Notes: generated by a model not told the origin, from the sequence alone. 64,000 nt of DNA from Patescibacteria group bacterium (GCA_028705565.1 JAQWDH010000005.1:5803-69802), one strand, 5' to 3'. Shown: positions 558 through 50,745, counted from the stretch's first letter. Translations and numbers: made by a program.

Positions 558-679
558 TTGTCATTGCGATCCCGACTTAGTCGGGAGAAGCAATCCCACG
601 GTTCGGTAGTGCCAATAATATATTTCTAAAACAATGGGATTGTTTCGTCGTTCGTTTCACTCACTCCTCGCAATGACAA
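558..679. repeat. GC-rich palindromic MITE-like element (termini ttgtcattgcga...tcgcaatgacaa; inner gcaatccca...tgggattg)
   Basis: Inverted-repeat termini and inner inverted repeat read directly; same family as in-frame copies inside leuS. Confidence 0.75.
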
Positions 680-718
680 CTAAGACAATAACAAAATAAT
701 TAATTAAATTTTTATACT

Positions 719-1021
719 ATGTCCGTATTTTCAAAACTAAAACAATTCAAGGACCTTCGCGAACAAGGCAAAAAACTGCAAGGCGCGATGGAAAAAGAAT
801 CAATAACAGTCAACGCGGCGGGAAATAAAATCGCTTTGACAATGGACGGCAATTTGCAAATCACAGGTCTAGCGATTGACGACGAAATGATGTCTCCGGA
901 TAAAAAAGAAAAATTGCAAAGCGCCATCAAGGACGCGCATTCAGAAGCGATTAAAAAAATACAAAGAATTATGGCCGGAAAAATGCAGGCCATGGGAGAA
1001 TTGCCGTGGCAAAAAAAATAA
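719..1021 (+). CDS. ybaB: Nucleoid-associated protein YbaB/EbfC
   Basis: 100 aa; conserved dnaX-ybaB-recR neighbourhood; sequence LQITGLAIDDEMMSPDKKEKLQSAIKDA typical of YbaB. Confidence 0.8.
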   Translation: MSVFSKLKQFKDLREQGKKLQGAMEKESITVNAAGNKIALTMDGNLQITGLAIDDEMMSPDKKEKLQSAIKDAHSEAIKKIQRIMAGKMQAMGELPWQKK

Positions 1022-1051
1022 TCTGAAAACACTTGATTAAAAAATCATTTC

Positions 1052-1648
1052 ATGTTTTCTCCTTCCATAGATAATTTAATCCGCGCGCTTAAAAACCTGC
1101 CTTCCGTCGGACAAAGAACGGCTGAAAGGTTTGTTTTTTATTGGCTCAAATCCGGAAAGAAAGAAGTGAATGATTTGCGCGAAGCTTTGGACAATCTTTT
1201 AAAAAATATTAAAAGCTGCGAAATTTGCTGGAATTTCGGAGATTCCAATCCTTGCCCGATTTGCCAAGACCAACGGCGAAACGCGGCCATTGTCGCAATT
1301 GTGGAAGACCCGCAAGACATTCCGGTGATAGAACAAACCGGAGAATTTAAAGGCCGCTACCATGTTTTGCGCGGACTTTTGGATTCCGGCGATGAAGAAA
1401 GTTTCAACAAAATAAAAATAAAAGAACTCCGGACGCGTTTGCAAACAGACAAGAACATCAAAGAAATAATTTTATCTTTAAACCCCAACCTGAACGGTGA
1501 AATGACAATGCTGTATCTGGAAAAAGAAATTAAAAAAAACAGGCCTGACATAAAAATCAGCCGGCTCGCGCGAGGATTGCCGATGGGCGCGGATTTGCAA
1601 TACGCGGATGAAATTACTCTTGGCAGCGCGATAAAAAACAGAAAATGA
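1052..1648 (+). CDS. recR: Recombination protein RecR
   Basis: 198 aa; C4 zinc finger CEICWNFGDSNPCPIC, Toprim domain; immediately follows ybaB. Confidence 0.9.
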   Translation: MFSPSIDNLIRALKNLPSVGQRTAERFVFYWLKSGKKEVNDLREALDNLLKNIKSCEICWNFGDSNPCPICQDQRRNAAIVAIVEDPQDIPVIEQTGEFKGRYHVLRGLLDSGDEESFNKIKIKELRTRLQTDKNIKEIILSLNPNLNGEMTMLYLEKEIKKNRPDIKISRLARGLPMGADLQYADEITLGSAIKNRK

Positions 1649-1726
1649 TTGAATTATTGGACAAAGATTCCACGTCTCCCCTCTCCACAGGCAAAGCGAA
1701 CCTCGCTCTCCGCCAAAGACGGATTA

Positions 1727-13118: not shown

Positions 13119-14479
13119 ATTTTGCTTGAATAAAACTGCGTGTTAAAAAGCTGAAAAACAAGCGGCGACAAAACCAAAAATAACGAAACGAAATAAGCCA
13201 AACGCGCCTCTTCGGTATAACGTTCGTCTCTATATCTTTTGTAAATAATAAAAACAATCCAACCGATAAACAAACCGAACGTCAAAAGACCGAATATTCC
13301 CTGCTCGGCCAAAAGTTTTTGCGCGATTCCGTGCGCGTCCAACGGGTCGCCGAATTCAAAACGAAACACGCCTATTTCTCCGGCGCGCGACAAAAAACTT
13401 CCTATACCTTGTCCGATAAACGGATGTTCTTTAAATAAAAACCAAGAAATGTTGGCGAGATACCAACGCGCCGCGGTTGAACTGCGGACAATCGGACTTG
13501 CTGTTAAAAAATACACGAGATAAACGAAAAGCGGAACAATAAAAAATGCGATTAAAAATTGAAATTTCCGCGCGTATTTTTTAAAATCTATTTTTTTACG
13601 CATCAAATAAACGAACACAACCGCCTCCACCGCCATTGTAAGCCAACCTGCGCGAGACAAAGTTAAAAGACCGATGATTAAAACAAATATCGTCGCCGCG
13701 CCGTAATATTTCCCACGCGCGGTGTTTTTATTTTTATACCAAAAATACAAAAATATCGGCAAGACGGAAGTTATCGTTTCGGCGAGAAAAATATGTTGGT
13801 CGCCGAAAGGCGCCCATCCGCCGATTGAGAACGGAGCGGCTCGGCGCATTCCGCCGGCTACAGCCCCCCATCCGAAAACGAAAGAAACAAATCCCATTGC
13901 CGCGCCCAAAAAACCGATTGACGCGAAAACAGCCAAACTTTTTTCCCAAATCTTTTTATCGTTCGCTATGTTCGCGCCGAGCATCACATAACCGAAATAA
14001 AATAATAAAAGAAAATGAAAAATATATTTTATTCCTCCAGCGATTTCAACAGACGACAAATTAATGAGCGACACGACAGCTGATAAAATAAAAAGCGCAA
14101 ACAAATGAAAACCCGGCAAGTTCACCTGTTCTGATTCGCCTTTGAAAAATCCACGAAATTTATTTATTACAAACGCGATTAAAAGCAAAATCGCCCAAAA
14201 TTCCACTGCCGGCGCGTTGACTTGTTCCAATCTGTAAAAACCTGAAAAAAAGGAAGGAAATTGTTCAAAACTTATAACCCAGTTGATGAGCGGTGAAATA
14301 AAAACCAAAATATACCAACCGATGTCTAAACGGTAAGAAACAGCCCAAGCCAAAAATAAAATGAAAAACACGGCCAAAGGCAAATATCCAACCCAAATAT
14401 AAAGCAGAACAAAACACAAAAACAGCAAAACAAAGCCAAAAAACTTGAAGGCCGTCTTTTTGTAAGAAATTTCCTTCAT
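13004..14479 (-). CDS. O-antigen ligase/Wzy-like polytopic membrane protein
   Basis: 491 aa, about 12 TM; Wzy_C-like LTLSRAGWLTMAVE motif. Confidence 0.55.
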   Translation of the reverse strand: MKEISYKKTAFKFFGFVLLFLCFVLLYIWVGYLPLAVFFILFLAWAVSYRLDIGWYILVFISPLINWVISFEQFPSFFSGFYRLEQVNAPAVEFWAILLLIAFVINKFRGFFKGESEQVNLPGFHLFALFILSAVVSLINLSSVEIAGGIKYIFHFLLLFYFGYVMLGANIANDKKIWEKSLAVFASIGFLGAAMGFVSFVFGWGAVAGGMRRAAPFSIGGWAPFGDQHIFLAETITSVLPIFLYFWYKNKNTARGKYYGAATIFVLIIGLLTLSRAGWLTMAVEAVVFVYLMRKKIDFKKYARKFQFLIAFFIVPLFVYLVYFLTASPIVRSSTAARWYLANISWFLFKEHPFIGQGIGSFLSRAGEIGVFRFEFGDPLDAHGIAQKLLAEQGIFGLLTFGLFIGWIVFIIYKRYRDERYTEEARLAYFVSLFLVLSPLVFQLFNTQFYSSKMWVPIALAVAQSIAYSSETLFANLRINFARKKKFVSKI

Positions 14480-14523
14480 ATATATCCATTATACCAAAAA
14501 TTTCGCATTTAGAGAAAAAGAAA

Positions 14524-14548
14524 GGGGGTTACACACAGGCAACCCCCA
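14524..14548. terminator. Bidirectional rho-independent terminator hairpin gggggtt-acacacaggc-aaccccc
   Basis: 7-bp GC stem with T-runs on both strands, downstream of the minus-strand gene ending at 14736. Confidence 0.6.
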
Positions 14549-14555
14549 AAAAATT

Positions 14556-14732
14556 TTGTCATTCCGATCCGCCCGGGGCGGAGAGAAATCTCTGCCGGTT
14601 ATTGTAAACCGGACAGAGATCCCTCGTTTCACTCGGGATGACACTTAAGTTTTTGTCATTCCGACGAAGGAGGAATCCCTGTCGGTTATTGTAAACCGGA
14701 CAGAGTTCCCTCGTTTCACTCGGGATGACACT
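14556..14732. repeat. Two tandem copies of palindromic MITE-like element (gtcattccga ... tcgggatgac termini; inner ctctg-ccggtt...aaccgg-acagag)
   Basis: Copy 1 14556-14645, copy 2 14653-14732, about 85% identical; termini and inner palindromes read directly. Confidence 0.8.
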
Positions 14733-14735
14733 TTC

Positions 14736-15875
14736 TTACAACCATCCACACTCCACCTTCCACCCCTCCTCCTCCTGGGGTGTCCATATGCATGGGTCTT
14801 GTTGACCTGTCTCGTCAACAAGACCATCGCAATCATTATCAAATGAATCGCCCGTGGTGTCGTGCATCCACGGGTTGTTCAATATTGACCCGTCGGTCCG
14901 GAAGAAAAAAAACGAACCTTCTGGACACTGGGTCTCTGTTAAAATAAATAATTTTCCAGTATCCTCTAGACACACTGTCCACTCCTCCAAATCGGTGGGG
15001 TCATCGTCGCAATCTCCACCCCACCAGACCTCGCACAACCTATTAACAGAATCAATGCACGGCGCCACCTCGCAGTGGCAATCTCCGTCATCGTCTGTAT
15101 TATCTTCACAATCTTCATCTGTATCATTATTACAATTACTATCAATATCATCTCCGCATATCTCTTCTGCGGCCGGGTTTATATTTGAATTAATATCGTC
15201 GCAATCCGGTCCTAACTCACAATTTTCTCCATAGTTATCGCCGTCGTTGTCTATGCATTCAAGAATAACAATTTCTCTTATACCGGCAAACATGAATGCC
15301 GGTTCATTATGAACTGTGGAGCACCTTGGGTCCACCCCGTCACAATTTTCATCAATTCCATTTCCGCATATTTCTGTTGCACTTGGATTGATAAAAAACG
15401 AAGTATCGTCGCAATCTTCCGGCGACAAAAAATTGTCGCCGTCACGGTCGCAAACATTGAGGTCGTCAACCTCAAGATTGCAATTATCATCAATTCCGTT
15501 ACCACATATTTCTGTTGCGCCGTGATGAATGCGTGGATTTCGCGGAGCACAATCAGTTTCGTTCGGATCTCCGTCATTATCAAAATCATCCGAAGGACAC
15601 GCGGCGACGATTCCGTCGCAGTCCTCGTCAATTCCATTTTCGCAGATTTCTGTTGCGCCAGGATTTATCTCTGAATCATTATCATCACAATCTGGTCCCA
15701 ACTCACAATCTTCACCATAATTATCACCGTCGTTGTCTATACAACTATTATTATCGCAGTTATTAGAGCCATAGCATGGCTCATAGCAGCTATTGATTGA
15801 GATCAATATACTCAACCCTACAAAAAAGAAAAACAAAAAAATAATACTGATAATAATATTTCTTTTTCCTATCAT
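14736..15875 (-). CDS. Membrane-anchored Cys-rich repeat protein, MopE-like putative metal-binding motif repeats
   Basis: N-terminal TM; at least 5 repeats of DNDGDNYGEDCELGPDCDD..INP.A.EICGNGIDE.CDG; codon usage visibly GC-richer than neighbours. Confidence 0.6.
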   Translation of the reverse strand: MIGKRNIIISIIFLFFFFVGLSILISINSCYEPCYGSNNCDNNSCIDNDGDNYGEDCELGPDCDDNDSEINPGATEICENGIDEDCDGIVAACPSDDFDNDGDPNETDCAPRNPRIHHGATEICGNGIDDNCNLEVDDLNVCDRDGDNFLSPEDCDDTSFFINPSATEICGNGIDENCDGVDPRCSTVHNEPAFMFAGIREIVILECIDNDGDNYGENCELGPDCDDINSNINPAAEEICGDDIDSNCNNDTDEDCEDNTDDDGDCHCEVAPCIDSVNRLCEVWWGGDCDDDPTDLEEWTVCLEDTGKLFILTETQCPEGSFFFFRTDGSILNNPWMHDTTGDSFDNDCDGLVDETGQQDPCIWTPQEEEGWKVECGWL

Positions 15876-15970
15876 AAAAAACCTCCCGCCCGTCCGCTTT
15901 TAAGCCGACGATACATTTGTTAAGGGCTAAACAACCCATAGAAAGGATGTGTTTAGCGCGAGCTTTCTTA

Positions 15971-15996
15971 TGTCTATAGTCTATAGACTATAGACT
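15971..15996. promoter_or_regulatory. Three closely spaced palindromic CTATAG hexamers upstream of the Cys-repeat gene
   Basis: t-ctatag-t-ctatag-a-ctatag-acta read directly, about 95 bp upstream of start at 15875. Confidence 0.4.
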
Positions 15997-16008
15997 ATTT
16001 AATTGTCA

Positions 16009-16173
16009 AAGAATACGCAAGTATAGCATATTTTAGCTGTCATCCTGAACACAGTGAAGGAACTCTGTCTGTTGTTGTTTAATCAATTGGACAGAGATTC
16101 TTCGCTTTGCTCAGAATGACAATTAACAAAACTCGCTAAAAGTTCAAAGAATACGCAAGTATAGCATATTTTG
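16009..16173. repeat. MITE-like palindromic element (gtcatcctgaac...tgctcagaatgac) flanked by 28-bp direct repeats caaagaatacgcaagtatagcatatttt
   Basis: Direct repeats at 16009-16036 and 16146-16173; inner element 16037-16131 has ctctgtc/gacagag inner palindrome like the 14556 family. Confidence 0.75.
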
Positions 16174-16289
16174 ACGATTTTGTCAAGTTTTTAAGCGCTT
16201 TTTTCGCTTGTTTTAAGCAAAAAACCGCCTTTTGGGCGGCAAATTTGGATGTTGATTTTACCTTATTTTGGTAAAATTTATTTTTTAAA

Positions 16290-17219
16290 TCAGAAACCGC
16301 GGCAATCAAAAAATTTTTTTCTTATTGCTAAACGACAATCGTTCTCGTGCAACTTAATAATTCCATCGCCAAAAATCACACCTTTGTCGCCGGCTACGGC
16401 TTTTTCTTTCACGGAAAATTTTATTTTTGCCAACTGCCATTCCCGCGCTTGTTTTTCAATCATATTTCCATACGCCACTGCCCACATTTTTTCCCACGCT
16501 TTTTTCCAACAAACGGCAAACAGTGTATCGGACACCGAAACTCTGCTTGTAAAATTCGCTTCTTTAAAGATATACGGCAAAAATTTTTCCACCCAATTAT
16601 TGGCATTTAAAAATTTTTGATAATAATTCAGCGGGTCATACAACGGAATCATTCGCCTCGTCCAATAAGCGAAATGTATATCGTCTTCCTCAATTCTGCA
16701 ACGCGATAAATCCAAATTGTCTTCGTCAATAAAAAACGAAAGACAAATTTTGTCGGCTTGTTTGGAGCCGTAAGTCCTCATTCCGAAAACGCGCAAAATA
16801 AGATTCGCGAAAAATCTCACAATCCAAACTCGCCCACGCGCCGCGACTATCAAAAAATCTATATCACTTTCCTTTGTCGCCTCTTCGGCGCCGACTGAAT
16901 TGCAAACGAACACCGCTCGTAAAAAAGGTATGGAACGAATTTTTTTAATCGCGCGTTTGGCTATTTTAATTTTTATTTCGCTCTCAACCAAAGCCGCCCG
17001 CCTTTTCTCCGTGATTTCATTTCTTCCTGGCAAAAAATAATATCCGCATTTCGTTTCCACCGAATTTTCATTTTTAATTTTTTCCAATTCATTTAAAAAA
17101 TCTTCATAACTTACTCGCGGCGGACGCCACAAAAATTCAAAAAGTTCCTCTTTTGTTAAGGGATAATCAAAAAAATTGAAGTATGACAATGTTTGAATTA
17201 TGGAAGATTTTAAATCCAT
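16290..17219 (-). CDS. Nucleotidyltransferase-domain protein (pol-beta-like minimal NTase)
   Basis: 309 aa; VFVCNSVGAEEATKESDIDFLIVAAR resembles G[SG]x9-13DxD NTase motif. Confidence 0.45.
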   Translation of the reverse strand: MDLKSSIIQTLSYFNFFDYPLTKEELFEFLWRPPRVSYEDFLNELEKIKNENSVETKCGYYFLPGRNEITEKRRAALVESEIKIKIAKRAIKKIRSIPFLRAVFVCNSVGAEEATKESDIDFLIVAARGRVWIVRFFANLILRVFGMRTYGSKQADKICLSFFIDEDNLDLSRCRIEEDDIHFAYWTRRMIPLYDPLNYYQKFLNANNWVEKFLPYIFKEANFTSRVSVSDTLFAVCWKKAWEKMWAVAYGNMIEKQAREWQLAKIKFSVKEKAVAGDKGVIFGDGIIKLHENDCRLAIRKKFFDCRGF

Positions 17220-17220
17220 C

Positions 17221-17571
17221 TTATTCGTTTTTACTCATCATTGCCCCGCCGAACGCGCCAACGGGAGCAGTATCTTTCACCGGCTCTGATTTTTCTTTTT
17301 CTTTTATTATGGCATCTTCAACCACGACTTTATCTGCGGTGATTTCTTTTACTTGGGGTGTTTTAATAAGATAAATCTGTTTGTTTAAAAAACTTTCCCT
17401 AACAGAGTATTCGGAAACCGCGTGCGTATTAACATCCAATTTAATATCAAAAATTTTACCCAGTTTGTCGCCGGATTCCGTGTAAACCGGCAAATCCATA
17501 AGTTTTTTAACATTGATGAACATATCATTTTCTTTTATTATTGGCAAAAATGAAGCCCATACTTTTATCAA
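17221..17571 (-). CDS. PRC-barrel domain protein
   Basis: 116 aa; INVKKLMDLPVYTESGDKLGKIFDIKLD typical of PRC barrel. Confidence 0.45.
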   Translation of the reverse strand: MIKVWASFLPIIKENDMFINVKKLMDLPVYTESGDKLGKIFDIKLDVNTHAVSEYSVRESFLNKQIYLIKTPQVKEITADKVVVEDAIIKEKEKSEPVKDTAPVGAFGGAMMSKNE

Positions 17572-18220
17572 ATTTGGAAGGAAAAACGCTCACTCCAAAT
17601 CCCCAACTTCTCAATTTTATTTCTATCTCTTTATGATTTCTGTTTTTATTGTTATGATATTCCAAAATTAAACAATCCATGGGCGACAAATCATTTTCAG
17701 ACAAACTTTCAAAAATTTCAAATTCCGCGCCTTCAATATCCATTTTCAACAAAGAAATTTTTTTGAGTTTGAATTTTTTAAAAAAATCCGGCAAACAGAA
17801 GACCTTGATTTTTATCTTTTCTCCATCCGTATTTTCGTCTTTTTCGCGCAAACGATGGTTGTGGCTGTCTTCGGAAATAAGCAAATCTCTCGCGCCGGTT
17901 TCATTAGACAAAGCCGCCGCAACGATTTCAACATTTTTTATGTTATTTTCTTTTAAATGTTTTTTCAACAATTCCAGATTGCGCGGCTCGGGCTCTACCG
18001 CGTAAATTTGCGAATTCTCGTTTAAAGCTCGGCAATAAATGGAAAACATCCCCGAATGCGCTCCCGCGTCAATTATCGGAAACAACGCCTCCGCGATTTT
18101 TTCTTCCGCCACCCTATATTCCCTTAATTTAAAAATTTCACGCATCACGCTTCTGTCCGCTTCATCGCGCAACCACAGCGTTATTTTTTTTCCTAAAAAA
18201 TTGATAATGGTTTTTTCCAT
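17525..18220 (-). CDS. FkbM-family SAM-dependent methyltransferase
   Basis: 231 aa; IDAGAHSGMFSIY and KMDIEGAEFEI motifs. Confidence 0.7.
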   Translation of the reverse strand: MEKTIINFLGKKITLWLRDEADRSVMREIFKLREYRVAEEKIAEALFPIIDAGAHSGMFSIYCRALNENSQIYAVEPEPRNLELLKKHLKENNIKNVEIVAAALSNETGARDLLISEDSHNHRLREKDENTDGEKIKIKVFCLPDFFKKFKLKKISLLKMDIEGAEFEIFESLSENDLSPMDCLILEYHNNKNRNHKEIEIKLRSWGFGVSVFPSKFDKSMGFIFANNKRK

Positions 18221-18230
18221 TTTATCAGAT

Positions 18231-18947
18231 TTATTTTTTCTTTCTGAATAAATACAGCTGTTGCAATCCCATTAAAACCGTGCTGAAAAACCAATATAAG
18301 GTTAATCCGGCAGGCAAGCTCAAACCGATAAACACTGTCATAACCGGCATAAAATACAGCATTTGTTTGTTCATTGTCGCCATCATGCCTTCGTCCTTGC
18401 CTCCGGCGCCGGCTTCTTTCGGCGGTTGTTTTTTTATAGTCATCCTCGCCTGCCAATATTGCGCCAACCCGGCCAGCGCTGCCAACGCAACGTTCGCTTT
18501 CGCCATATCAAAATAACCCAAAGAAATCGGATTGATTTGACCCGGATTGGAAACAAACGAGTATAAACTATCGGATAAATTCGCTGATGCCAAACCGTCG
18601 CGCAAAACCGCGTATAAAGCTATAAGTATCGGAAGCTGAACCAAAAGAGGCAAACACGAAGCGAACGGATTTACTTTATTGTTTTTATACATTTCCATTA
18701 TCGCCTGCGTTTGTTTTTGTTTGTCATCCGCGTATTGTTTTTTAATTTCATCCAATTTCGGCTGAATTTCTTGCATTGACTTTTGAGCTTTTATGGATGA
18801 ATTTGTAAGCGGGTAAACCGCCAAACGCACCAAAATCGTAACGACTAAAATTACCGCGCCGACATCGTGCCCCGGAATTAAATTATACAATCCGACAAAA
18901 GCGTTAAATATCGGCTGGTAAAGAATGACGTGAAAAAGATTTAACAT
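18231..18947 (-). CDS. yidC: Membrane protein insertase YidC/Oxa1 (short form)
   Basis: 238 aa; 5 TM core; sequence AVILVVTILVRLAVYPLT typical of YidC. Confidence 0.8.
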   Translation of the reverse strand: MLNLFHVILYQPIFNAFVGLYNLIPGHDVGAVILVVTILVRLAVYPLTNSSIKAQKSMQEIQPKLDEIKKQYADDKQKQTQAIMEMYKNNKVNPFASCLPLLVQLPILIALYAVLRDGLASANLSDSLYSFVSNPGQINPISLGYFDMAKANVALAALAGLAQYWQARMTIKKQPPKEAGAGGKDEGMMATMNKQMLYFMPVMTVFIGLSLPAGLTLYWFFSTVLMGLQQLYLFRKKK

Positions 18948-18961
18948 AGATATTATTTATT

Positions 18962-20266
18962 TTATTTTTCTTTTGTTTCTTTCGCTTTTTTTACTTTTTT
19001 CTTTTTGATCGTTTTTTCTTTGTCGGATTTTTTCAGTTCTTCATTTTTAACAGGAGCCGCTTCTTTATTTTCCGATTCAACAATTTCGTCAGTATTTTCT
19101 TCGCTGTCAATGCTTGAAACTTCGTTGTTCGTTCCGTCTTCTTTTACTTTTATATTCCAGCCGGTAAGCTGAGCCGCTAAGCGTACATTCTGTCCGCTAT
19201 GTCCGATTGCCAAAGAAAATTGATCCGGCGCGACAAACACATCGGCGTTTCTCGTTTTTTCGTTAAGCTCAACTTTCAATACCTTGGCTGGAGACAACGC
19301 GTTGGAAATATATTGTTTGGTGTCTTCGTTATATTGAATTATGTCAATTTTTTCTCCGCCAAGTTCCTCAATAATGGTATTGATTCTCCCTCCGCGCTGA
19401 CCAATACAAGAACCGATTGGGTCAATTGATTCGTCTTTTGAAGCGACAGCGACTTTTGAACGCCATCCGGCGTCTCTCGCGACGCCTTTGATTTCAATTT
19501 TGTCTTCGCCGACTTCGGGAATTTCCTGTTTAAAAATTTCGCGCACCAAACCTTCATTGCTGCGTGATAAAATTATCTCCGGTCCGCGCGGAGTCATATC
19601 CACGAATAAAATTAAAACTTTCACGCGGCTTCCTGGACGAAGCCGTTCTTTCATAATTTGTTCTTCCGGAGGAATAATGCCAGAAATTTTTCCCAAATCA
19701 ATCCGCGCTCTGTTGCCTTCAATCTGTTGAACGATGCCTGTGACAATTTTTCCTTCCTGCGATTTGTAATCGCCAAAAACCATATTTCTCTCCGCTTCTC
19801 TCAATTTTTGTATAACAACCTGTTTCGCTGTTTGCGCCGCCATGCGTCCGAAATCGCCTGGAATTTCAAGGGGAATTTCCAGCACATCGCCAATTTTAAC
19901 TTTTTTATCAATTTCTTTCGCAGCCGCGAACATAATCTCTGTTTTAATGTTGAATCGCGGCAAATCAGCTGTTTCTTCTTCCGTAAGTTCACGATTTTCT
20001 TCGCGGGCTTTTTCTCTTCTTGCTGTTAATTCCTCCTGAGCCGCGAGCAAATTTTCTTCGCTAACGTCATCAACAACAGTTTTTACATCCCAAACCTTAA
20101 TATCGCCCTTCTCGGGGTCAAATTTCGCCTTGATGTTTTGTTGTTTATTGCCAAAATCCTTGCGATAAGCAGCGGCCAAAGCCGTTTCTATGGTTTCAAG
20201 CACGGATTCATAAGATAAATTTTTCTCAGCGCAAATTGACTGAATCGCTTTTGTTATTTCCGACAT
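18962..20266 (-). CDS. nusA: Transcription termination/antitermination factor NusA
   Basis: 434 aa; S1 and tandem KH domains, acidic Lys-rich C-terminal tail. Confidence 0.9.
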   Translation of the reverse strand: MSEITKAIQSICAEKNLSYESVLETIETALAAAYRKDFGNKQQNIKAKFDPEKGDIKVWDVKTVVDDVSEENLLAAQEELTARREKAREENRELTEEETADLPRFNIKTEIMFAAAKEIDKKVKIGDVLEIPLEIPGDFGRMAAQTAKQVVIQKLREAERNMVFGDYKSQEGKIVTGIVQQIEGNRARIDLGKISGIIPPEEQIMKERLRPGSRVKVLILFVDMTPRGPEIILSRSNEGLVREIFKQEIPEVGEDKIEIKGVARDAGWRSKVAVASKDESIDPIGSCIGQRGGRINTIIEELGGEKIDIIQYNEDTKQYISNALSPAKVLKVELNEKTRNADVFVAPDQFSLAIGHSGQNVRLAAQLTGWNIKVKEDGTNNEVSSIDSEENTDEIVESENKEAAPVKNEELKKSDKEKTIKKKKVKKAKETKEK

Positions 20267-20424
20267 ATATTTAAGTTAAAATTATTAATAATATAATAGC
20301 ACAAATGACGTATTTAATGAAGAAAGAGCGTCGTATGAACGCTCTTAATAATATATAGAATAGCAAAAAATAAAATTTTTGTCAATATTGCTTGGGTTGT
20401 CCTACCGGCAAGCAGGTCTCTCCA

Positions 20425-20733: not shown

Positions 20734-20862
20734 TTTTTTCTCCCTTTTTTAATCTTTTTTTTATATTTTAAAGGACCGCTTAATTTAAATTAAACCATAT
20801 TTAAAAAATTTGGTCAATCGCCTGTACAATACAGGACTGTCGCCGAATGTGTTTGTCATTCC

Positions 20863-20992
20863 GACCATAGCGAAGCGAAGTGGAGGAATCCCTCTTACGG
20901 TCAATGGACGACTGGCGACAGACGACGGACAGACAAAAGGGATTCCTCCACTCATTTCATTCGGTCGGAATGACAGAATGAAATGATTTTTG
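20863..20992. repeat. Palindromic MITE-like element (gtcattccgacc...ggtcggaatgac; inner gtggaggaatccc...gggattcctccac)
   Basis: Outer and inner inverted repeats read directly; ORF-track ORF 20785..21012 lies inside it. Confidence 0.8.
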
Positions 20993-21031
20993 TTATTCGG
21001 CGACAGCCTCAATACACATTCAGTGAAAGGT

Positions 21032-29556: not shown

Positions 29557-31617
29557 TTAATTTCGCAACACGAGTTTTTTGAATTTCTTTTCTTCTTTAA
29601 ACGCTTCCAAAACATCGCCAATTTCCAACTTTGTTTTGCCGATAAAATTCGCTCCGCACTCGCTTCCTTCCGGCACTTCGCTCATCGCTTGCTGGCCTAT
29701 TTGCAGTTTGGCTATCTGCCCCTTTCCTATAATTTCTCCGCTTCGTTTCACTCTTGCTTGGCAATCTTTAATCAGTTTCCCGTCTTCCACTCTGCCGCCA
29801 ACTATCATTGAGCCGCTTTCAGCTCGAAAAATGGCGACAATTTTTAAAATGCCAAACTCTGTAACCACCAATTCTGGAATCAACAATTTTTCCAATTCTT
29901 CTTTTACAAAATCCAACAAATCATAAATTATATGAAATTCTTGAAAATTAATTTCTGACTCTTCCATCATTTCTCTCGCATTCGCAGGAGCGATAACATT
30001 AAATCCTAAAATCAGCGCCTTACCCGCAACCGCCGTAGAAACATCGTCGGCGGTTATATTGCCCAAACCTTTACCGACAACTTTTATGCCGACCTCGCCG
30101 TGTTGAATTTTACCCAAAGAACCAACAATCGCTTCCAATGACCCGAGCACATCGGCTTTGACTACAACATTAAGATAAATTTTTTCACTTTCTTTGTCTT
30201 GTTCAATCGCAATAGCCGATTGTTTTTCCGCGCCTGTTTGTTTTATTTTTTTCACTCTAACGTCCACTTGCGTCGCGTTTTCCGCGGAACCCACATCAAG
30301 CACATCGCCGACTTGCGGAGCGACTTTAAATCCGAGAATCCGCGCCGGACAACTTGGAGACGCTGTTCGCAAAACCTCGCCTTTATAATTTTTCATTGCT
30401 CTTACTTTTCCGTAAATTTCTCCGTTTATAACTAACGGGTCGTTAATGTTTAAAGTTCCGGTTTGAACCAAAATCGTGGCAACCGGCCCTTCGCCTTTAT
30501 CAACATGCGCTTCAATAATCGTTCCGGCCGCTGGACGGTCGGCATTAGCTTTTATATTTTCCGCGTTCATATCCCCGACCAAAAGCAGTGTGTCCAAAAG
30601 TTTGTCTATATTTAATTTTTTCAAAGCGGAAATTTCCACCATTGGCGTATCCCCTCCCCAATCATCACTCAAAACATTGTATTGGGACAAATCGGCTTTT
30701 ACTTTTTTAACATCCGCGCCTTCCTTGTCCATTTTATTAATCGCCACGACCATTGGTAATTTGGCGGCTTTTATAATGTTAATCGCTTCCACTGTTTGCG
30801 GTTTAACGCTGTCATCTGCTGCCACAACCAAAATGGCGATGTCCGCGACTTTCGCTCCTCTGCTTCTCATCACAGTGAAGGCCTCGTGTCCCGGAGTGTC
30901 AATAAATGTAAGCGGGGTGATTTCTTTTGTTTTCGGATTAGTCCACATCACCTGATACGCGCCTATATGCTGTGTGATTCCTCCGGCTTCCTGCGCCACG
31001 ACATTCGCGCTGCGGATGGCATCCAATAATTTCGTTTTGCCGTGGTCCACGTGCCCCATTACGACTACAACCGGCGGACGCGAAGATTTTCCTTCGTCGT
31101 CTTCGGACAAAATCTTTTCCAAAGCTTCCGTGTGCGCCGCGAGTTCAATGCTATTTTCTTTTTTGCTTTCGGTTTTAAAACCGAATTCCTGCGCGATAAG
31201 CGCGGCAGTATCGTAATCTATATTTTCATTTTGATTCGCCAGCACTCCGTTTTTGATAAGTTCCATTATAACTTTTGTCACAGGAATTTGCATCAAATCG
31301 GCCAAAACGCGCACGGTTACGGTTTGTGGAATAACAACCGTCGCCCCACTCTCCCCTCTTACTTTTTTTTCAAGCTCTTTTTGTTTTTCTTTTTCAATGA
31401 TTTCCCTTTTATCAAGCGTCGCTTTAATGTTTCTCCACGCGCGCCGTATCTGTTCCGCCACCCTGTCGTCAATTTTTACAGCCCTTGCGCCGACATCATA
31501 ACCGAACTCCGGCAAAATTTGCAGGAGCTTTTGTGGATTTACTTTTAATTGTCTGGCTAATTCCGATACATTCATGTTATTTAAACTTAAAATGATTTGT
31601 AAAATCAATTCAATCAA
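29557..31617 (-). CDS. infB: Translation initiation factor IF-2
   Basis: 686 aa; GHVDHGKT, DTPGH, NKMD G-domain motifs. Confidence 0.9.
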   Translation of the reverse strand: MIELILQIILSLNNMNVSELARQLKVNPQKLLQILPEFGYDVGARAVKIDDRVAEQIRRAWRNIKATLDKREIIEKEKQKELEKKVRGESGATVVIPQTVTVRVLADLMQIPVTKVIMELIKNGVLANQNENIDYDTAALIAQEFGFKTESKKENSIELAAHTEALEKILSEDDEGKSSRPPVVVVMGHVDHGKTKLLDAIRSANVVAQEAGGITQHIGAYQVMWTNPKTKEITPLTFIDTPGHEAFTVMRSRGAKVADIAILVVAADDSVKPQTVEAINIIKAAKLPMVVAINKMDKEGADVKKVKADLSQYNVLSDDWGGDTPMVEISALKKLNIDKLLDTLLLVGDMNAENIKANADRPAAGTIIEAHVDKGEGPVATILVQTGTLNINDPLVINGEIYGKVRAMKNYKGEVLRTASPSCPARILGFKVAPQVGDVLDVGSAENATQVDVRVKKIKQTGAEKQSAIAIEQDKESEKIYLNVVVKADVLGSLEAIVGSLGKIQHGEVGIKVVGKGLGNITADDVSTAVAGKALILGFNVIAPANAREMMEESEINFQEFHIIYDLLDFVKEELEKLLIPELVVTEFGILKIVAIFRAESGSMIVGGRVEDGKLIKDCQARVKRSGEIIGKGQIAKLQIGQQAMSEVPEGSECGANFIGKTKLEIGDVLEAFKEEKKFKKLVLRN

Positions 31618-33622: not shown

Positions 33623-33732
33623 CCAGCAGGGTCGAATGACCCTGCCAGCCAGGTCGCTCAATCCTGCCAGCAGGGTCGAATGATACTGCCAGCAGGGTCG
33701 AATGATACTGCCAGCAGGGTCGAATGACCCTG
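33623..33732. repeat. Five abutting tandem 22-bp units ccagcagggtcgaatgaccctg, each containing a 7-bp stem hairpin
   Basis: Units at 33623, 33645 (degenerate), 33667, 33689, 33711; no spacers. Confidence 0.85.
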
Positions 33733-33835
33733 TGGATAAGTTGTTTTGCCTTATTGTAGCGGAATAATAATAAGTATGGTAAGATAAGAAAGTAAAAGTC
33801 ATTATTTTATCTTTATAAAGAGAGGGGGTGAATTT

Positions 33836-34255: not shown

Positions 34256-35251
34256 TTATTTCTTATTTTTCTTTCCATTTAAATATCTCTTCATTGTTTT
34301 ATCAAAATCAGAAATAAGATTTTTGTTCTGTTCTTTTTTGTATTTTTCAAATTCTGCATTAGCCACCAGTACGGCTTGCTCGGCGCTTACTTTACCTGAA
34401 TTAACTAGAAGTTTTTTCTCGCTCAGTTTCAAAAAATCATCAAGTTTACCAATCCAGTCAGTCATTTTCATAAATCGACCGTTTGTTGCTTGTAATTCAG
34501 CAAAATCTAAATAAAGTGAAACAATTAAATTGAGTTGTTTTAGCTCGTTCTCCGACAAATAATTCTTGGCAATTTTTATATCTTGAGCGGTGACGTATTT
34601 ACCCTTGAAATTAGTTAGCCCCATCATCAGTTTTTTGCTATTCGCCCGATTGGCCACAATTTCTGCTGCCGTTTGTCCATGAACAGCAAAATGCATTTTG
34701 TTTTGAACAATAGCAAAAAAATCTTTTGTTAGTTCGTCGTCCTTTTTATAATCAATGCTAGTGGCGTAAATGTCGGTTACTTTTTGATAAAAATTGCGTT
34801 CACTACTCCGGATATCTCTAATTCTTTGGAGCAGTTCTTCAAAATAACGCGATTTATTATCGCCCTGTTTTAATCGTTCATCGTCTAACACAAACCCTTT
34901 TATAATATATTCCTTAAGCCGCTGTGTTGCCCAAATTCTAAACTGTGTTCCACGCAATGATTTAACTCGATAGCCGACGGAAATAATGATATCAAGATTA
35001 TAATAATTTGTCGGTTTAGTAGAAAATTCGGAATTTCCGAATTTTCTCATTGTTTGTGCTAAAACAAGCTCTTTTTCATCATAAATATTCTGAATGTGCT
35101 CATTTACCGTAGATTTTGATTTATCAAAAAGAACAGTCATTTCATCTTGGGTAAGCCAAACAGTTCCATCTTCCATTTTCACTTGCAGTTTTGCTTCCCC
35201 GTCATCAGTGGTGTAAATAATTATTTGTGACTTATGGTTGTTTTTTTTCAT
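34256..35251 (-). CDS. RhuM-family (virulence protein RhuM-like) protein
   Basis: 331 aa; N-terminus IIIYTTDDGEAKLQVKMEDGTVWLTQDEMTVLFDKSKSTVNEHIQNIYDEKEL matches the conserved RhuM-family N-region. Confidence 0.6.
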   Translation of the reverse strand: MKKNNHKSQIIIYTTDDGEAKLQVKMEDGTVWLTQDEMTVLFDKSKSTVNEHIQNIYDEKELVLAQTMRKFGNSEFSTKPTNYYNLDIIISVGYRVKSLRGTQFRIWATQRLKEYIIKGFVLDDERLKQGDNKSRYFEELLQRIRDIRSSERNFYQKVTDIYATSIDYKKDDELTKDFFAIVQNKMHFAVHGQTAAEIVANRANSKKLMMGLTNFKGKYVTAQDIKIAKNYLSENELKQLNLIVSLYLDFAELQATNGRFMKMTDWIGKLDDFLKLSEKKLLVNSGKVSAEQAVLVANAEFEKYKKEQNKNLISDFDKTMKRYLNGKKNKK

Positions 35252-35380
35252 ACATTCATGAGAATTCAGGCATTATTTTGGTCATGCGCAGATATTGGAT
35301 AATGTTTATTATAATATACTTTTTTCGTTGTTTGTACATCAATTCAAAGTAAGTGCATCAATGGAACATAAAATCCGCTA

Positions 35381-35455
35381 TGGTAGCCCCAACGGGAATC
35401 GAACCCGTATTACCACATTGAAAGCGTGGTGTCCTAGCCATTAGACGATGGGGCC
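35381..35455 (-). tRNA. tRNA-Glu (anticodon UUC), CCA encoded
   Basis: Cloverleaf folded by hand: acceptor GGCCCCA/TGGGGCT, anticodon stem CCACG/TGTGG, loop CTTTCAA, T-loop GGTTCGATTCC. Confidence 0.85.
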
Positions 35456-35557
35456 AGAAAAAATTTAAAAGCGTAATTATTATATGTTATTTTTAATCAA
35501 AAGTCAAGGGATAACATTGACATTTGCTGAATTTTTTGATAAAATTATTTTAACTTT

Positions 35558-35631
35558 GTCAGGGTAGCTCAGATGGTTAGAGCACGGGATTCATAACCCC
35601 GAGGTCGGGAGTTCGATTCTCCCCCCTGACA
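35558..35631 (+). tRNA. tRNA-Met (anticodon CAU; elongator or Ile-lysidine type, 1-72 paired)
   Basis: Acceptor GTCAGGG/CCCTGAC, D-arm GCTCAGATGGTTAGAGC, anticodon loop TTCATAA, T-arm GGGAGTTCGATTCTCCC. Confidence 0.85.
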
Positions 35632-35676
35632 CTAAAAATCGTTCTTTAAAATCTGCCGATTGGCGGAAGGAGGAAA

Positions 35677-41952: not shown

Positions 41953-42042
41953 GTTTTTCCTCCTACTTTCAATCTCGACTGAATGCCGAAATTGAAATTA
42001 ATTAATAAGCGAGCTTATTTATTTTTGTTATTGGTCACTTGT

Positions 42043-42098
42043 CATTGGACATTGGACATTGGACATTGGACATTGGACATTGGACATTGGACATTGGA
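42043..42098. repeat. Heptanucleotide tandem repeat (cattgga) x 8
   Basis: Read directly; between pheT stop and the start of the 41952 gene. Confidence 0.9.
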
Positions 42099-45649: not shown

Positions 45650-45755
45650 GGTATGTAACGAATTACGAAAATAAAATATATGACGAACTACGAAAGGTAC
45701 GAAAATACGAAATGAGAGTGAGAATATGTAACGAACTGCGGAAGGTATAAAAAAT
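45650..45755. repeat. Repeat copy A (cgaactacgaaaggtacgaaaatacgaaatgagagtgagaatatgt) plus degenerate acgaa-type partial repeats
   Basis: Matches copies at 47764-47800 (direct) and 48227-48291 (inverted). Confidence 0.75.
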
Positions 45756-47763: not shown

Positions 47764-47800
47764 TTACGTACGAACTACGAAAGGTACGAAAATACGAAAA
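47764..47800. repeat. Repeat copy B (cgaactacgaaaggtacgaaaatacgaaa), left flank of GxxExxY cassette
   Basis: Direct match to copy A. Confidence 0.75.
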
Positions 47801-47815: not shown

Positions 47816-48214
47816 ATGGAACGGCGCCAATTAAAACGTACTGACCTTTTATATCCTGATTTATCTTATAAAATTAATGGTATTTTATTTGATGTTTTTA
47901 AAGAACTTGGCGGCGGACATCTAGAAAGATACTACCAAAAAGCTACTGCCTTGGGATTTCGGAACAACGGATTAAAATTTATTGAACAATACCACGTTCC
48001 TTTAGTATACTCCGGGGAAAAAATTGGAAAATACTTCATCGATTTTCTTGTTGAGGATAAAATCGTTTTGGAATTAAAACGAGGAGTATTTATTCCGGCT
48101 AACATTCTGCATCAAGTTAAAAAATATCTGATTTCAACTAATTTAAAACTGGCTCTTATCGCTTGTTTTACAAATAAAGGCGTGGTGGTAAAAAGAATAC
48201 TTAATATATATTAA
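47816..48214 (+). CDS. GxxExxY family protein (PD-(D/E)xK-like)
   Basis: 132 aa; GGHLERYY matches the GxxExxY signature; flanked by inverted repeats. Confidence 0.7.
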   Translation: MERRQLKRTDLLYPDLSYKINGILFDVFKELGGGHLERYYQKATALGFRNNGLKFIEQYHVPLVYSGEKIGKYFIDFLVEDKIVLELKRGVFIPANILHQVKKYLISTNLKLALIACFTNKGVVVKRILNIY

Positions 48215-48226: not shown

Positions 48227-48291
48227 TTTCGTACTTTCGCATTTCATCACATATTCTCATTTCGTACTTTCGTACCTTTCGTAGTTCGTAC
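48227..48291. repeat. Repeat copy C, inverted orientation (reverse complement of copy A), right flank of GxxExxY cassette
   Basis: Reverse complement gtacgaactacgaaaggtacgaaagtacgaaatgagaatatgt matches copy A. Confidence 0.8.
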
Positions 48292-48298
48292 ATAAATT

Positions 48299-49192
48299 AT
48301 GTATTCTCAAATTTCTTCCAATAAACGCAATTCGGTTTTGCTGATGATGGCAGCGATCGCGATACTCATCTCTTTAGGTTATGTTTTTGATTTGGCATCA
48401 GGACGACAGAATTACGGAGGCGTGGCAATCGCCGTATTTTTTTCTTTTATAATGACTGCTGTGTCATATTTTCAAGGCGATAAAATCGCGCTTTGGTCAA
48501 CTGGCGCTAAACCTGTTTTACACGATGAAAATCAATATCTTTACCACTTGGTGGAAAATCTTTGCATAACTTCCGGTTCTCCGATGCCGAAAATTTATGT
48601 TATTAACGACCCGGCAATCAACGCTTTCGCAACCGGCAGAAAACCAGAACTCGCTTCAGTGGCGATAACACGTGGGGCAATGGAAAAATTAAACAAAGAA
48701 GAATTGGAAGGCGTGCTCGCGCACGAACTTTCGCATATCAAAAATTATGATATCCGTTTTATGACGCTTGTTGCCGTAATAGTCGGCGCAGTGTCTATTC
48801 TTTCAAATATATTTTTGCGTTCCAGATGGTTTTCAGGAGGACGCGACAGCGACCGCGACAACGGAGGCGGACAATTGGCGGCGATTTTTATGATTATAGG
48901 AATTATTTTCGCCATACTTTCCCCTCTTATCGCGGAACTTATCAAACTCGCCGTTTCTCGCCGACGCGAATATCTCGCGGACGCGTCCGGCGCGCTGTTG
49001 ACCCGATATCCGGAAGGGCTCGCTCGAGCGTTGAAAAAAATCGCGTCTGAAAATCTACCTTTGCGTTCCGCTTCTTCAGCAACGGCGCACTTATTCATCG
49101 CCAACCCGTTCAACGGAAAAAAACTATCAGCAATGTTTTCCACTCATCCGCCAGTTGAAGACAGAATAAAAAAATTAAGAGAAATGGCGTAA
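48299..49192 (+). CDS. htpX: Protease HtpX (M48 family)
   Basis: 297 aa; HELSHIKNYD HExxH, 4 TM. Confidence 0.85.
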   Translation: MYSQISSNKRNSVLLMMAAIAILISLGYVFDLASGRQNYGGVAIAVFFSFIMTAVSYFQGDKIALWSTGAKPVLHDENQYLYHLVENLCITSGSPMPKIYVINDPAINAFATGRKPELASVAITRGAMEKLNKEELEGVLAHELSHIKNYDIRFMTLVAVIVGAVSILSNIFLRSRWFSGGRDSDRDNGGGQLAAIFMIIGIIFAILSPLIAELIKLAVSRRREYLADASGALLTRYPEGLARALKKIASENLPLRSASSATAHLFIANPFNGKKLSAMFSTHPPVEDRIKKLREMA

Positions 49193-49214
49193 AAATTCAA
49201 AATTTGTTTGTCGT

Positions 49215-50585
49215 CTATCGTCCATTGACCGGCTCAATCAAATCTGAAACTTCTTTAACTTTTTCATCCATTATTTCTTTTTTTCTCGCTTCCAAATTCA
49301 AACGCAAAAGCGATTCTGTGTTGGACGCGCGAACATTAAACCAAAAATCCGGATAAGTGAAAGTCAAACCGTCCAAATCGTTTATTTCCGCGTCCGCGTA
49401 TTTTTCTTTGAGCGCGGACAAAACATTTTCTTTGTTTTCCACGCGAAAATTTATTTCGCCGGAATGAAAATATCTTTTCAGCGGTTTTATGTAATCCGAC
49501 AAACTTTGGTTTGTTTCCGACAATTCCTGCAATAATTTCAAAATTACGACCATCGGCGCCTCATAAACTCCATGCGGAAATTTGACGAAAAAATGTCCTG
49601 ACGATTCACCTCCGAAAACCGCGCCGGTTTCCAACATTTGTTTTTTGATAAGAGAATGCCCGACGCGCGTAACCGACGGCGCTCCCCCATTTTCCAAAAT
49701 CATATCTTCGGTGATTTTTCCCGGACGAATATCATAACAAATCACGGCGCCTGGATTTTCGCGTAAAAACAATTTTGCCATAATTCCCCTGAGCATCGCA
49801 GGTTCCAATACCTCGCCTTTATCGTCAATAAAAAAAATCCTGTCGCCATCGCCATCCGTTGAAATTCCCAAATCGGCTTTTTCGCTTAAAACTTTTTCTT
49901 TCAAATCTTTCACATTTTTTTCTTGAAACGGGTCCGGCTGATGCGCTGGAAACGAACCGTCCAAATCAAAATTCATTTTTACAAAATCCACTTGCGGCAA
50001 ATCCGCGAATAATTTTTCCAAATACAAAGCGCCCATTGAATTGGCAGCGTCCGCAATAATTTTAAATTGTTTGATTTTGGCGATGTCCGCGTATTTTTCG
50101 CAAAAATTTTTTTCTTCTTCCAACGCCGTGTCAATGCTGATTATCATTTCTTTTTTTTCACTCGCCGGCGAAAAATTATCAGCCGAAACCGTCTCTCGTA
50201 ATTCCTCCATCCCGGTTCCCTGTCCGAACGGAATCGCTCGGTCGCGAATTATTTTTATTCCATTGTATTCTTTCGGGTTATGCGATGCTGAAATTAAAAG
50301 CCCTCCGTCATAACCGTAATATGAAACCGCGAAATAAAAAGTTGGGGTTGAAGCCAAACCGATATCAATAATCTCCGCGCCTGCGTCTATCAAACCGCGT
50401 TTTACGGCCTCAAACAAAGACGGGGAAGAAATCCGCATATCGCGTCCGATAACCAATTTGATTCCAATTTTTCCTGTTTCTTTTTTACGCGTTTCAGCGA
50501 ACGCGCGAGCGATTTTGTACGCCAAATCCTCATTTAATTCCTCGGGATAAACCCCGCGCACATCGTATGCCTTGAAAATTGACAT
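49215..50585 (-). CDS. Phosphoglucomutase/phosphomannomutase family protein
   Basis: 456 aa; ASHNPKEYNGIK phosphoserine loop, DGDGDR metal loop. Confidence 0.8.
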   Translation of the reverse strand: MSIFKAYDVRGVYPEELNEDLAYKIARAFAETRKKETGKIGIKLVIGRDMRISSPSLFEAVKRGLIDAGAEIIDIGLASTPTFYFAVSYYGYDGGLLISASHNPKEYNGIKIIRDRAIPFGQGTGMEELRETVSADNFSPASEKKEMIISIDTALEEEKNFCEKYADIAKIKQFKIIADAANSMGALYLEKLFADLPQVDFVKMNFDLDGSFPAHQPDPFQEKNVKDLKEKVLSEKADLGISTDGDGDRIFFIDDKGEVLEPAMLRGIMAKLFLRENPGAVICYDIRPGKITEDMILENGGAPSVTRVGHSLIKKQMLETGAVFGGESSGHFFVKFPHGVYEAPMVVILKLLQELSETNQSLSDYIKPLKRYFHSGEINFRVENKENVLSALKEKYADAEINDLDGLTFTYPDFWFNVRASNTESLLRLNLEARKKEIMDEKVKEVSDLIEPVNGR

Positions 50586-50635
50586 AAAATATTAAATTAC
50601 AAATTACAAATCAAGCCAAAAATCCAAATGTCAAA

Positions 50636-50745
50636 TTGTCATTGCGCTTCGCTCGTAATGACAATATTGTCCATTATCCGTTAATGTCACAAGACAGGGA
50701 TCCCTCTCCGCCCTTGGCGGATCGGGATGACAGCATCGTCCGTAA
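50636..50745. repeat. Two partial palindromic element copies (ttgtcattgcg...taatgacaa; inverted left end of the 14556-family element)
   Basis: Reverse complement of 50716-50745 equals gctgtcatcccgatccgccaagggcggaga, matching the start of copy 14556. Confidence 0.65.

Follow-up and report, generated by a model that had tools for sequence, protein, structure and literature searches.

Hairpin repeats of the window and their structure

The DNA analysed here is a 64,000-nt stretch, henceforth referred to as the window, of a Patescibacteria group bacterium (GCA_028705565.1, JAQWDH010000005.1:5803-69802), a metagenome-assembled genome (MAG) of the candidate phyla radiation (CPR). Housekeeping genes are the neighbours throughout (dnaB, ybaB, recR, nusA, infB, trx, pheST, dnaE, clpB and recG), and dispersed among them is a family of small palindromes, two of which lie inside the leucyl-tRNA synthetase gene leuS. 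The palindromes are built from a hairpin unit that opens with an unpaired 5′-YGTC tag, in the manner of repetitive extragenic palindromic (REP) sequences. Outside the window, units of this kind were found to flank a gene for a 95-aa GIY-YIG nuclease, a candidate enzyme for their mobilisation.

A sequence-only reading had described the palindromes as a dispersed family with GTCATYSCGA termini, and every palindrome locus that it listed is present. Exact matches to GTCATYSCGA on both strands of the whole window number 13 against 0.40 expected, and none of 100 dinucleotide-preserving shuffles gave 13. The count agrees with a covariance model, R1, trained on 47 distinct units of which 46 came from outside the window. 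An unfiltered R1 scan of the complete window returned 12 half-units at E < 0.2, every one within the loci already listed, and no convincing additional locus. The full elements fold into long branched hairpins, with z-scores of -3.5 to -8.5 relative to shuffles. These results confirmed the window loci as genuine copies of a small hairpin repeat, regarded as selfish, and supported the core of the sequence-only reading, that of dispersed, non-autonomous palindromes resembling REPs or Rickettsia palindromic elements (RPE). A GC content "much higher" than the background had also been described; it is raised, but moderately, at 49% in the elements compared to 40% in the window and 37% in the flanks.

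The ten loci, collected in Table 1, comprise six inverted dimers (A, B, C, D, E and G; 77–122 bp) with tags outward and a 25–50-nt spacer, two single units (F and J) and two mini-palindromes (H and I). The latter keep only the tag and outer stem arm on each side and are therefore regarded as collapsed dimers. Units are 24–41 nt long within the window, and all begin with the tag TGTC. Placement at gene ends, as described earlier, was observed at five of the six intergenic sites, which lie 4–160 nt 3′ of a stop codon between same-strand genes. The tandem pair was likewise found, at 14557–14730. The central palindrome of dimer B, CTCTGCCGGTTATTGTAAACCGGACAGAG, is common to C and D, and the spacer palindrome CTCTGYC-GGTTATTGTAAACC-GGACAGAG is present in all three, which indicates that whole dimers, not units alone, were copied within this genome. 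The loop GGTTATTGTAAACCGGACAG, central to and specific for B, C and D, was not found in IMG/VR. The direct repeat reported around D is present, although its length is 29 nt and not 28; the two copies bracket the dimer plus 3 nt and 22 nt of extra sequence. The repeat also holds an extended -10-like sequence, TGCTATACT, on the minus strand.

Table 1 Positions of the repeat loci and associated features in the window (bit scores, and z-scores relative to shuffles).
Feature	Position	Units or sequence	P1 stem	Scores	Site
Dimer A	559–678	559–595 (+), 638–678 (-)	ATTGC/GCAAT	36.5 and 28.1 bits; z -5.15	between dnaB and ybaB, 40 nt past dnaB stop
Dimer B	14557–14643	14557–14590 (+), 14618–14643 (-)	right unit ATCCC/GGGAT	z -6.82	
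Dimer C	14654–14730	14654–14677 (+), 14703–14730 (-)	left unit ATTCC/GGAAT, right unit ATCCC/GGGAT	z -3.75	tandem with B, 10-nt spacer; end 5 nt from stop of open reading frame 14736–15875 (-)
Dimer D, degenerate	16038–16121	left unit decayed; right unit 16096–16121 (-)	ATTCT/AGAAT	19.3 bits; z -3.5	
Direct repeat flanking D	16007–16035 (+) and 16144–16172 (+)	29-nt perfect repeat TCAAAGAATACGCAAGTATAGCATATTTT			
Dimer E	20854–20975	20854–20890 (+), 20941–20975 (-)	both ATTCC/GGAAT	31.8 and 43.6 bits; z -7.78	begins 56 nt past stop of metallo-beta-lactamase-fold gene
leuS	23996–27115 (-)	1039 aa, intact open reading frame; product 100% identical to a Patescibacteria MAG protein			hosts F and G in two variable loops
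Single unit F	24454–24497 (+)			36.5 bits	inside leuS
Dimer G	26320–26414	26320–26360 (+), 26388–26414 (-)		36.7 and 34.2 bits; z -8.48	inside leuS
Mini-palindrome H	29495–29514	TGTCATTCC-TCGGGATGACA		R1 7.5 bits, weak	between trx and infB
Mini-palindrome I	50637–50663	TGTCATTGCG-CTTCGC-TCGTAATGACA			
Single unit J	50686–50732 (-)	unit proper 50699–50732 (-)	ATCCC/GGGAT	22.5 bits; z -2.82	divergent intergenic region between PGM-type mutase and clpB-like genes

No transposase or integrase was detected among the 49 window open reading frames (ORFs) scanned against Pfam, in agreement with the sequence-only reading. At the gathering threshold, Rfam identified only two tRNAs and no repeat family, while an Rfam E-value search of 14400–30000 returned only spurious hairpin matches of the miRNA-precursor kind, all far below thresholds. 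Literature matches to the literal repeat motif were primers only.

Both copies inside leuS proved to be in frame. F is read on the minus strand as DGIASSSPWANPRND, and G is read as VIASEAKQSYNNYNGNSGIASSSPSGIPRND. Alignment with 17 homologues (59–65% identity) showed F and G to be insertions in variable loops between invariant blocks, absent from most of the aligned proteins. Among the 120 best LeuS homologues, which all come from CPR-type lineages, unit-derived peptides were present in loop 1 of 12 and loop 2 of 5, and the remaining homologues were devoid of them. Inserts with both ends present follow the frame path VIA..KQS...IAS..PRND. As judged from these alignments, the pattern is one of insertion polymorphism at permissive sites, as described for RPE.

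Other insertions were also observed in this LeuS. A NUDIX domain (PF00293; GGGLKDGEDAVKCAQREIEEETGY) is inserted in the enzyme body at residues ~420–560, as it is in most Patescibacteria homologues, and some homologues contain alpha/beta-hydrolase domains. Three more in-frame insertions, at 26165–26230, 25170–25250 and 24925–24955, consist of palindromic DNA of other kinds and are absent from the 17 aligned homologues, with a shorter related segment in one protein (P0013) at the third site. Two of the three are of the CCTGCCTACCGG...CCGGTAGGCAGG type, one of these with a 19-nt internal tandem duplication, and the other duplicates the neighbouring coding sequence in inverted form, with 26-nt arms that are 81% complementary.

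The anatomy of the unit was drawn from 240 loci outside the window, containing 326 exact pattern matches and 470 distinct units. On the tag strand it consists of the unpaired YGTC tag, ATTSC (the 5′ arm of stem P1), GA, a variable stem-loop (P2), GAA, GSAAT and a C-rich tail. As extracted from these loci it reads YGTC, ATTGC, GA, variable stem-loop, GAA, GCAAT, C, with a length of 23–67 nt and a mode of 33 nt. Across 47 distinct 35-nt units, standard pairing was observed in 88% of cells compared to 73% in shuffles, and the covariation score was 0.265 compared to 0.077, a value that none of 500 shuffles attained. Pairing fell to 17–51% when the registers were slid by 1–3 columns, and compensatory changes occur in all six distal pairs. 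P1 co-varies inside the window as well (ATTGC/GCAAT, ATTCC/GGAAT, ATCCC/GGGAT and ATTCT/AGAAT); outside it, the variable P1 position is G..C in 623 cases, C..G in 12 and G..G in 3.

The mismatches in P2 carry a strand signal. Cells that are not Watson-Crick pairs are purine-purine in 499 cases and pyrimidine-pyrimidine in 127, tandem G.A/A.G occurs in about one third of units, and G:T (123) exceeds A:C (76), from which it follows that the hairpin is selected on the tag strand. In a dimer, the strand that folds correctly changes from top at one end to bottom at the other; this two-fold symmetry argues for action on DNA rather than on a single transcript. Over 925 termini, conservation ends sharply at position -1 (T 77%, C 17%), with only a weak G-poor bias outside it. 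No target-site duplication of 1–8 nt was detected among 187 paired elements, the direct-repeat matches in their flanks being at or below chance. The sizes of these pairs are bimodal, with one class at 60–200 bp (mode 80–100) and another at 340–420 bp.

A GIY-YIG nuclease gene between repeat units

The family extends far beyond the window, contrary to the restriction to it that would have refuted the sequence-only reading. A scan with the pattern TGTCATTGCGA-N8-38-GAAGCAATC matched at least 120 IMG/VR stretches and at least 120 stretches of GTDB species genomes, across most phyla. Hosts among the matches listed include Alpha- and Deltaproteobacteria, Chloroflexota, Cyanobacteria, Bacteroidota, Planctomycetota, Omnitrophota, Patescibacteria, Helicobacter, Firmicutes, Spirochaetes, Ignavibacteria, Verrucomicrobia, Gemmatimonadota, Atribacterota and a Rickettsiales endosymbiont. 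The ATTCC variant was rarer, with 11 IMG/VR stretches. A dimer of the same family in Candidatus Doudnabacteria (PFAJ01000064.1, locus L130, 4590–4880) contains an internal ~30-nt tandem array, TTCTCGACT(A/C)GGCTCGAAATCTGCGAC.

ORFs within 400 nt of the termini at the 240 loci (1890 in total) were clustered without prior assumptions and with no profile for Y1 transposases. No recurrent transposase family was present in this clustering, and the partner proposed by the sequence-only reading, a REP-associated tyrosine transposase (RAYT) or IS200-like gene, was not found near the repeat. The viral set was dominated by phage structural genes. The genome set revealed instead, as the recurring gene, one for a 95-aa GIY-YIG protein adjoining the unit. 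At one locus (L180) the ORF occupies exactly the position of the spacer, in the order TGTCATTGCGAG..GAAGCAATC, 12 nt, ATG...TAA, 9 nt, GATTGCTTCG..CTCGCAATGACA. The protein consists of a GIY-YIG catalytic domain alone (PF01541, residues 4–77), and its nearest solved structure is 1ZG2, "UPF0213 protein BH0048". It has at least 8000 homologues, of which the top ones, ~70–80% identical, come from Firmicutes, Dehalococcoidia, Cyanobacteria, Desulfobacterota, WOR-3 and KSB1. Identity of this order across phyla is suggestive of horizontal spread, and not of a single-copy gene maintained by vertical descent. Over-long gene calls open with translated units, for example SLRG..RRSNL, SRSEATKQS and VIATKCSEAIS.

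The association was also observed from the side of the protein. At 80 metagenome loci picked by protein similarity alone, a unit lay no more than 250 nt away on the left side in 69 of 76 cases and on the right in 72 of 78, compared to 30 of 1600 shuffled flanks. The median gap was 24 nt from unit to ATG and 6 nt from stop to unit, and a few ORFs have a complete dimer on each side (L254, L265 and L271, as well as L323 of A. lipoferum). Among the 240 repeat-selected loci the gene was present in 3. Outside subscription-only sources, no description was found in the literature of GIY-YIG genes associated with REP, RAYT, miniature inverted-repeat transposable element (MITE) or palindromic sequences; the literature searched likewise yielded no function and no repeat link for the UPF0213/YhbQ-type GIY-YIG family.

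Two GIY-YIG candidates were considered and rejected. The segment 16139–16321 (-), beside dimer D, gave a 26-residue profile match (E = 0.1) that was judged to be chance. A pseudogene at the Doudnabacteria locus was set aside as distant, interrupted by an in-frame TAG, ~360 nt from the dimer and not between units.

REPs have been split into GTAG- and CGTC-tagged superfamilies by Di Nocera, De Gregorio & Rocco (2013, BMC Genomics 14:522; PMC3733652). Members of the CGTC class carry the tag CGTC (often TGTC, with CCTC allowed), perfect 8–9-bp stems starting A-T, T-A, loops of 4–5 nt and a CCA tail, and are mostly dimers, with intragenic copies (PMC3733652). The class includes Neisseria dRS3 (CGTC-1) and the R. 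conorii elements RPE-6 and RPE-4, and was reported from 5 phyla, mostly Alphaproteobacteria (PMC3733652). Its members show no association with genes for transposases and are apparently without a dedicated transposase, and no tyrosine transposase flanked by CGTC units was found (PMC3733652).

The GIY-YIG gene was found with these classical repeats as well. A tblastn search of PLSDB returned 32 records, mainly from Rhizobium, Sinorhizobium, Shinella, Sphingobium, Novosphingobium, Azospirillum and Neisseria, several of which are listed as CGTC hosts (PMC3733652). Eleven of the records were examined. Perfect-stem CGTC units, one forward and one reverse, enclose the gene in S. meliloti, Rhizobium CIAT894, Shinella, N. 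aromaticivorans and Aeromonas caviae. The stem sequence differs with the protein lineage (ATCCTCGGG, ATCCCAGGG, GCCCCGTG, and ATTCCCGC/ATCCCCGC), and in three rhizobia the left unit stops 23 nt ahead of the annotated start. On the A. lipoferum 4B plasmid AZO_p3 (255106–256190; L323), the gene is inserted into the Fe-S cluster assembly operon, between sufB and sufC, and is bordered by a full CGTC dimer at either end. In N. gonorrhoeae a dRS3 unit begins 4 nt after the GIY-YIG stop, and in Planktothrix, Spirosoma, Photobacterium and R. tumorigenes dimers lie within ~200 nt of the gene. S. meliloti contains, beside the full copy, one with an internal deletion, in which the left junction and the last ~27 codons are retained between units; this indicates ORF-bearing copies as the source of at least some ORF-less forms. 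In one Rhizobium record (L326) an ORF-less dimer lies 140 nt away; both junction segments are common to the two, and 22 unrelated nt replace the ORF.

Mechanism and competing explanations

The explanation favoured here, with a confidence moderately above even, is that the window copies are REP-type dimers of a bulged-stem branch of the CGTC/TGTC-tagged superfamily, non-autonomous selfish DNA that would be mobilised by a GIY-YIG nuclease. The inverted, tag-outward dimer (REPIN-like) would be the form that spreads. The nuclease would recognise the tag together with the hairpin extruded on each strand, in single-stranded DNA or a cruciform, and cut there; host replication or repair would then complete copying or excision. 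The ORF-less dimers of the window would either depend in trans on a master copy at another place in the genome or be relics of a past invasion. Copies would persist where they are least harmful, that is, just past stop codons and, in frame, in two permissive LeuS loops. A wider proposal is that the 95-aa protein is the long-missing dedicated enzyme of the whole CGTC/TGTC superfamily, dRS3 and RPE-4/-6 included, with the window copies as ORF-less dependants; this is offered tentatively, as a possibility somewhat short of an even chance.

Several points weigh against mobilisation by the nuclease. The 64-kb window contains no GIY-YIG gene (the best profile match has E 0.1 over 26 residues), so the window copies are non-autonomous, and no ORF-bearing dimer was present in the seven Patescibacteria loci fetched. 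The 80 protein-picked loci represent a single GIY-YIG subfamily, for which a gene next to the repeat served as seed. Enzymes of the GIY-YIG type hydrolyse DNA; they are not known to form covalent intermediates and do not carry out strand transfer alone. Their chemistry leaves the integration step unexplained, and host functions would therefore be needed for it. The 29-nt direct repeat around D is an exception left unexplained by the model, because the family as a whole is without target duplication. Lastly, the Rhizobium L326 pair and the nested layout would also fit homing of the ORF into existing dimers.

Under homing, the GIY-YIG gene would be a free-standing endonuclease gene that parasitises REP dimers. 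The enzyme would cut ORF-less dimers and repair would copy the ORF into them, with the units serving as homology arms; the dimers would be spread by something else (another enzyme, host recombination or replication slippage), and the window copies would be unrelated to the nuclease. Such an origin would account for an ORF that always sits in the spacer with variable junctions, for the L326 dimers, whose only difference (the ORF or 22 nt) is a typical presence/absence pattern, and for the ORFs between two complete dimers. It is also consistent with the small share of repeat-selected loci that hold the gene, ORF-less dimers far outnumbering ORF-bearing ones. The arrival of dimers at unrelated sites, coding loops among them, would however stay unexplained, and the 95-aa protein is devoid of the DNA-binding domain that homing GIY-YIG enzymes such as I-TevI carry. 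The deleted S. meliloti copy points to the derivation of some ORF-less forms from ORF-bearing ones. Co-variation of protein lineage and stem is expected if the enzyme recognises the unit, but is compatible with homing too. On balance homing is considered rather unlikely, at about one chance in four.

Two further explanations dispense with the nuclease. The units could be host-serving structures, such as terminators, mRNA-stabilising hairpins or nucleoid-protein sites, retained between genes by selection, to which the GIY-YIG association is incidental and due to their commonness. The stability of the hairpins and the location of five of six intergenic sites shortly past a stop codon between co-directional genes, a placement also reported for REPs (PMC3733652), would fit such a function. 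A host-serving origin is nonetheless improbable given near-identical sequences over phyla of very different GC and in viral contigs, in-frame LeuS copies in some lineages and not others, and GIY-YIG flanking far above chance. Most copies, moreover, have no following T run, and the two-fold symmetric dimers present both orientations though the hairpin is selected on one strand. Terminator or mRNA-stabilising roles may be secondary. The units could alternatively be strict REPINs mobilised by a RAYT, or by a different enzyme of the IS200/IS605 type, whose gene lies in another part of the genome, since the build is analogous (5′ tetranucleotide tag, imperfect hairpin, inverted dimers and no target-site duplication). 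The tag, however, is YGTC and not GTAG, the 1890 clustered ORFs held no recurrent transposase family, the window holds no such gene, and no tyrosine transposase flanked by CGTC units was reported in the earlier survey (PMC3733652). This last explanation is given very little credence.

Mobilisation of the dimers by the GIY-YIG nuclease, the preferred explanation, would have several consequences. If the nuclease acts on the tag-hairpin, the origin of dRS3, RPE-4/-6 and their relatives would be explained, a function would be assigned to widespread UPF0213-like GIY-YIG proteins, and a new enzymatic basis for mobile DNA would be added. Among bacterial DNA elements, the repeat would then be the first to owe its mobilisation or maintenance to a GIY-YIG nuclease that acts on tagged hairpins, and the pair would be the GIY-YIG equivalent of RAYT and REPIN. 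Few non-coding features of bacterial genomes are as abundant as REP-type repeats, for which, to our knowledge, a mobilising enzyme (RAYT) has been proposed in the GTAG class only. The 95-aa GIY-YIG gene, unit-flanked in many phyla, is a candidate partner for the REP superfamily that is without one. The bulged-stem branch is abundant in a reduced Patescibacteria genome and is written into the sequence of an essential enzyme. As a practical matter, the units produce spurious N-terminal extensions and "hypothetical proteins" in gene calls.

Other window features and relation to known systems

Other repeats and small genes were observed in the window. A 132-aa PD-(D/E)XK nuclease gene (PF13366 PDDEXK_3, E 1.4e-24) at 47816–48214 (+) lies between 32-nt inverted repeats, GTACGAACTACGAAAGGTACGAAA(A/G)TACGAAA, at 47768–47800 (+) and 48258–48290 (-), with solo and degenerate copies at 45682–45750. 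Its layout is that of the GIY-YIG gene in REP dimers: inverted repeats enclose a very small nuclease gene, and copies without the ORF occur as well. At 33623–33735 a 22-nt unit, CTGCCAGCAGGGTCGAATGAYA, itself partly palindromic, is repeated 4–5 times in tandem, immediately downstream of the RNase Y gene and upstream of that for HU. A 7-nt tandem repeat, GGACATT, with ~8 copies is found at 42040–42098, between the pheT stop and the start of a small minus-strand ORF. A RhuM-family gene (PF13310, E 4e-106) at 34256–35632 adjoins divergent tRNA-Glu and tRNA-Met genes; this may be a small integrated-element remnant.

The closest likeness of the window unit is to the CGTC REPs, with which it has in common a YGTC tag, an AT-initial stem, inverted dimers and in-frame intragenic copies. 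It differs in that the window stem is only 5 bp long and is followed by a conserved internal loop of purines (GA/GAA) and by a distal stem-loop that varies freely, and the bulged-stem variant occurs in most phyla, Patescibacteria included, compared to the 5 phyla reported. Window tails after GSAAT, also C-rich, are CCC or CC(A/T), for example GCAATCCCAC and GGAATCCCT, and those elsewhere are CTC or CCC, similar but not identical to the CCA consensus. The dRS3 sequence CGTCATTCCCGCGCAGGCGGGAATCC has TCATTCC...GGAATCC in common with the window ATTCC units, and R1, although trained on bulged units, scores dRS3 at ~15 bits (E 0.013). Repeats with bulged stems are among those that the 2013 survey could miss (PMC3733652). 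From its sequence features, the window unit was filed as a putative bulged-stem variant of the CGTC/TGTC-tagged superfamily, because of the common tag, stem start, dimers and intragenic copies, but not as a member of its four families, because its stem is short and bulged.

RPE resemble the window copies as in-frame palindromes in housekeeping genes that add ~15–30 residues in tolerated loops, comparable to LeuS loops 1 and 2. The host differs, here a Patescibacteria MAG, and the two are tied only through the assignment of RPE-4/-6 to the CGTC class (PMC3733652). Classical MITEs such as Correia, ERIC and Nezha are likewise short, non-autonomous and palindromic, and have bimodal sizes with an ORF-bearing form. 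The likeness to Correia and ERIC drawn by the sequence-only reading did not hold beyond this, nor did that to a classic MITE. The element is a tagged-hairpin dimer, with no target-site duplication among the 187 pairs and no DDE-transposase parent, and its ends are hairpin units rather than plain terminal inverted repeats. A MITE-like origin by internal deletion was observed in the S. meliloti copy, but the parent there encodes a nuclease and not a transposase.

The ORF within the dimers resembles the stand-alone UPF0213/YhbQ GIY-YIG proteins (1ZG2, BH0048) in being a bare catalytic domain. In overall organisation the system can be set beside REPIN/RAYT, where the hairpins are likewise tagged, inverted doublets replicate, singletons arise by decay, target-site duplication is absent and an associated gene is flanked by the units. 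The differences lie in the tag, which is GTAG there and YGTC here, and in the flanked gene, which encodes an HUH/Y1 transposase there and a 95-aa GIY-YIG nuclease here.

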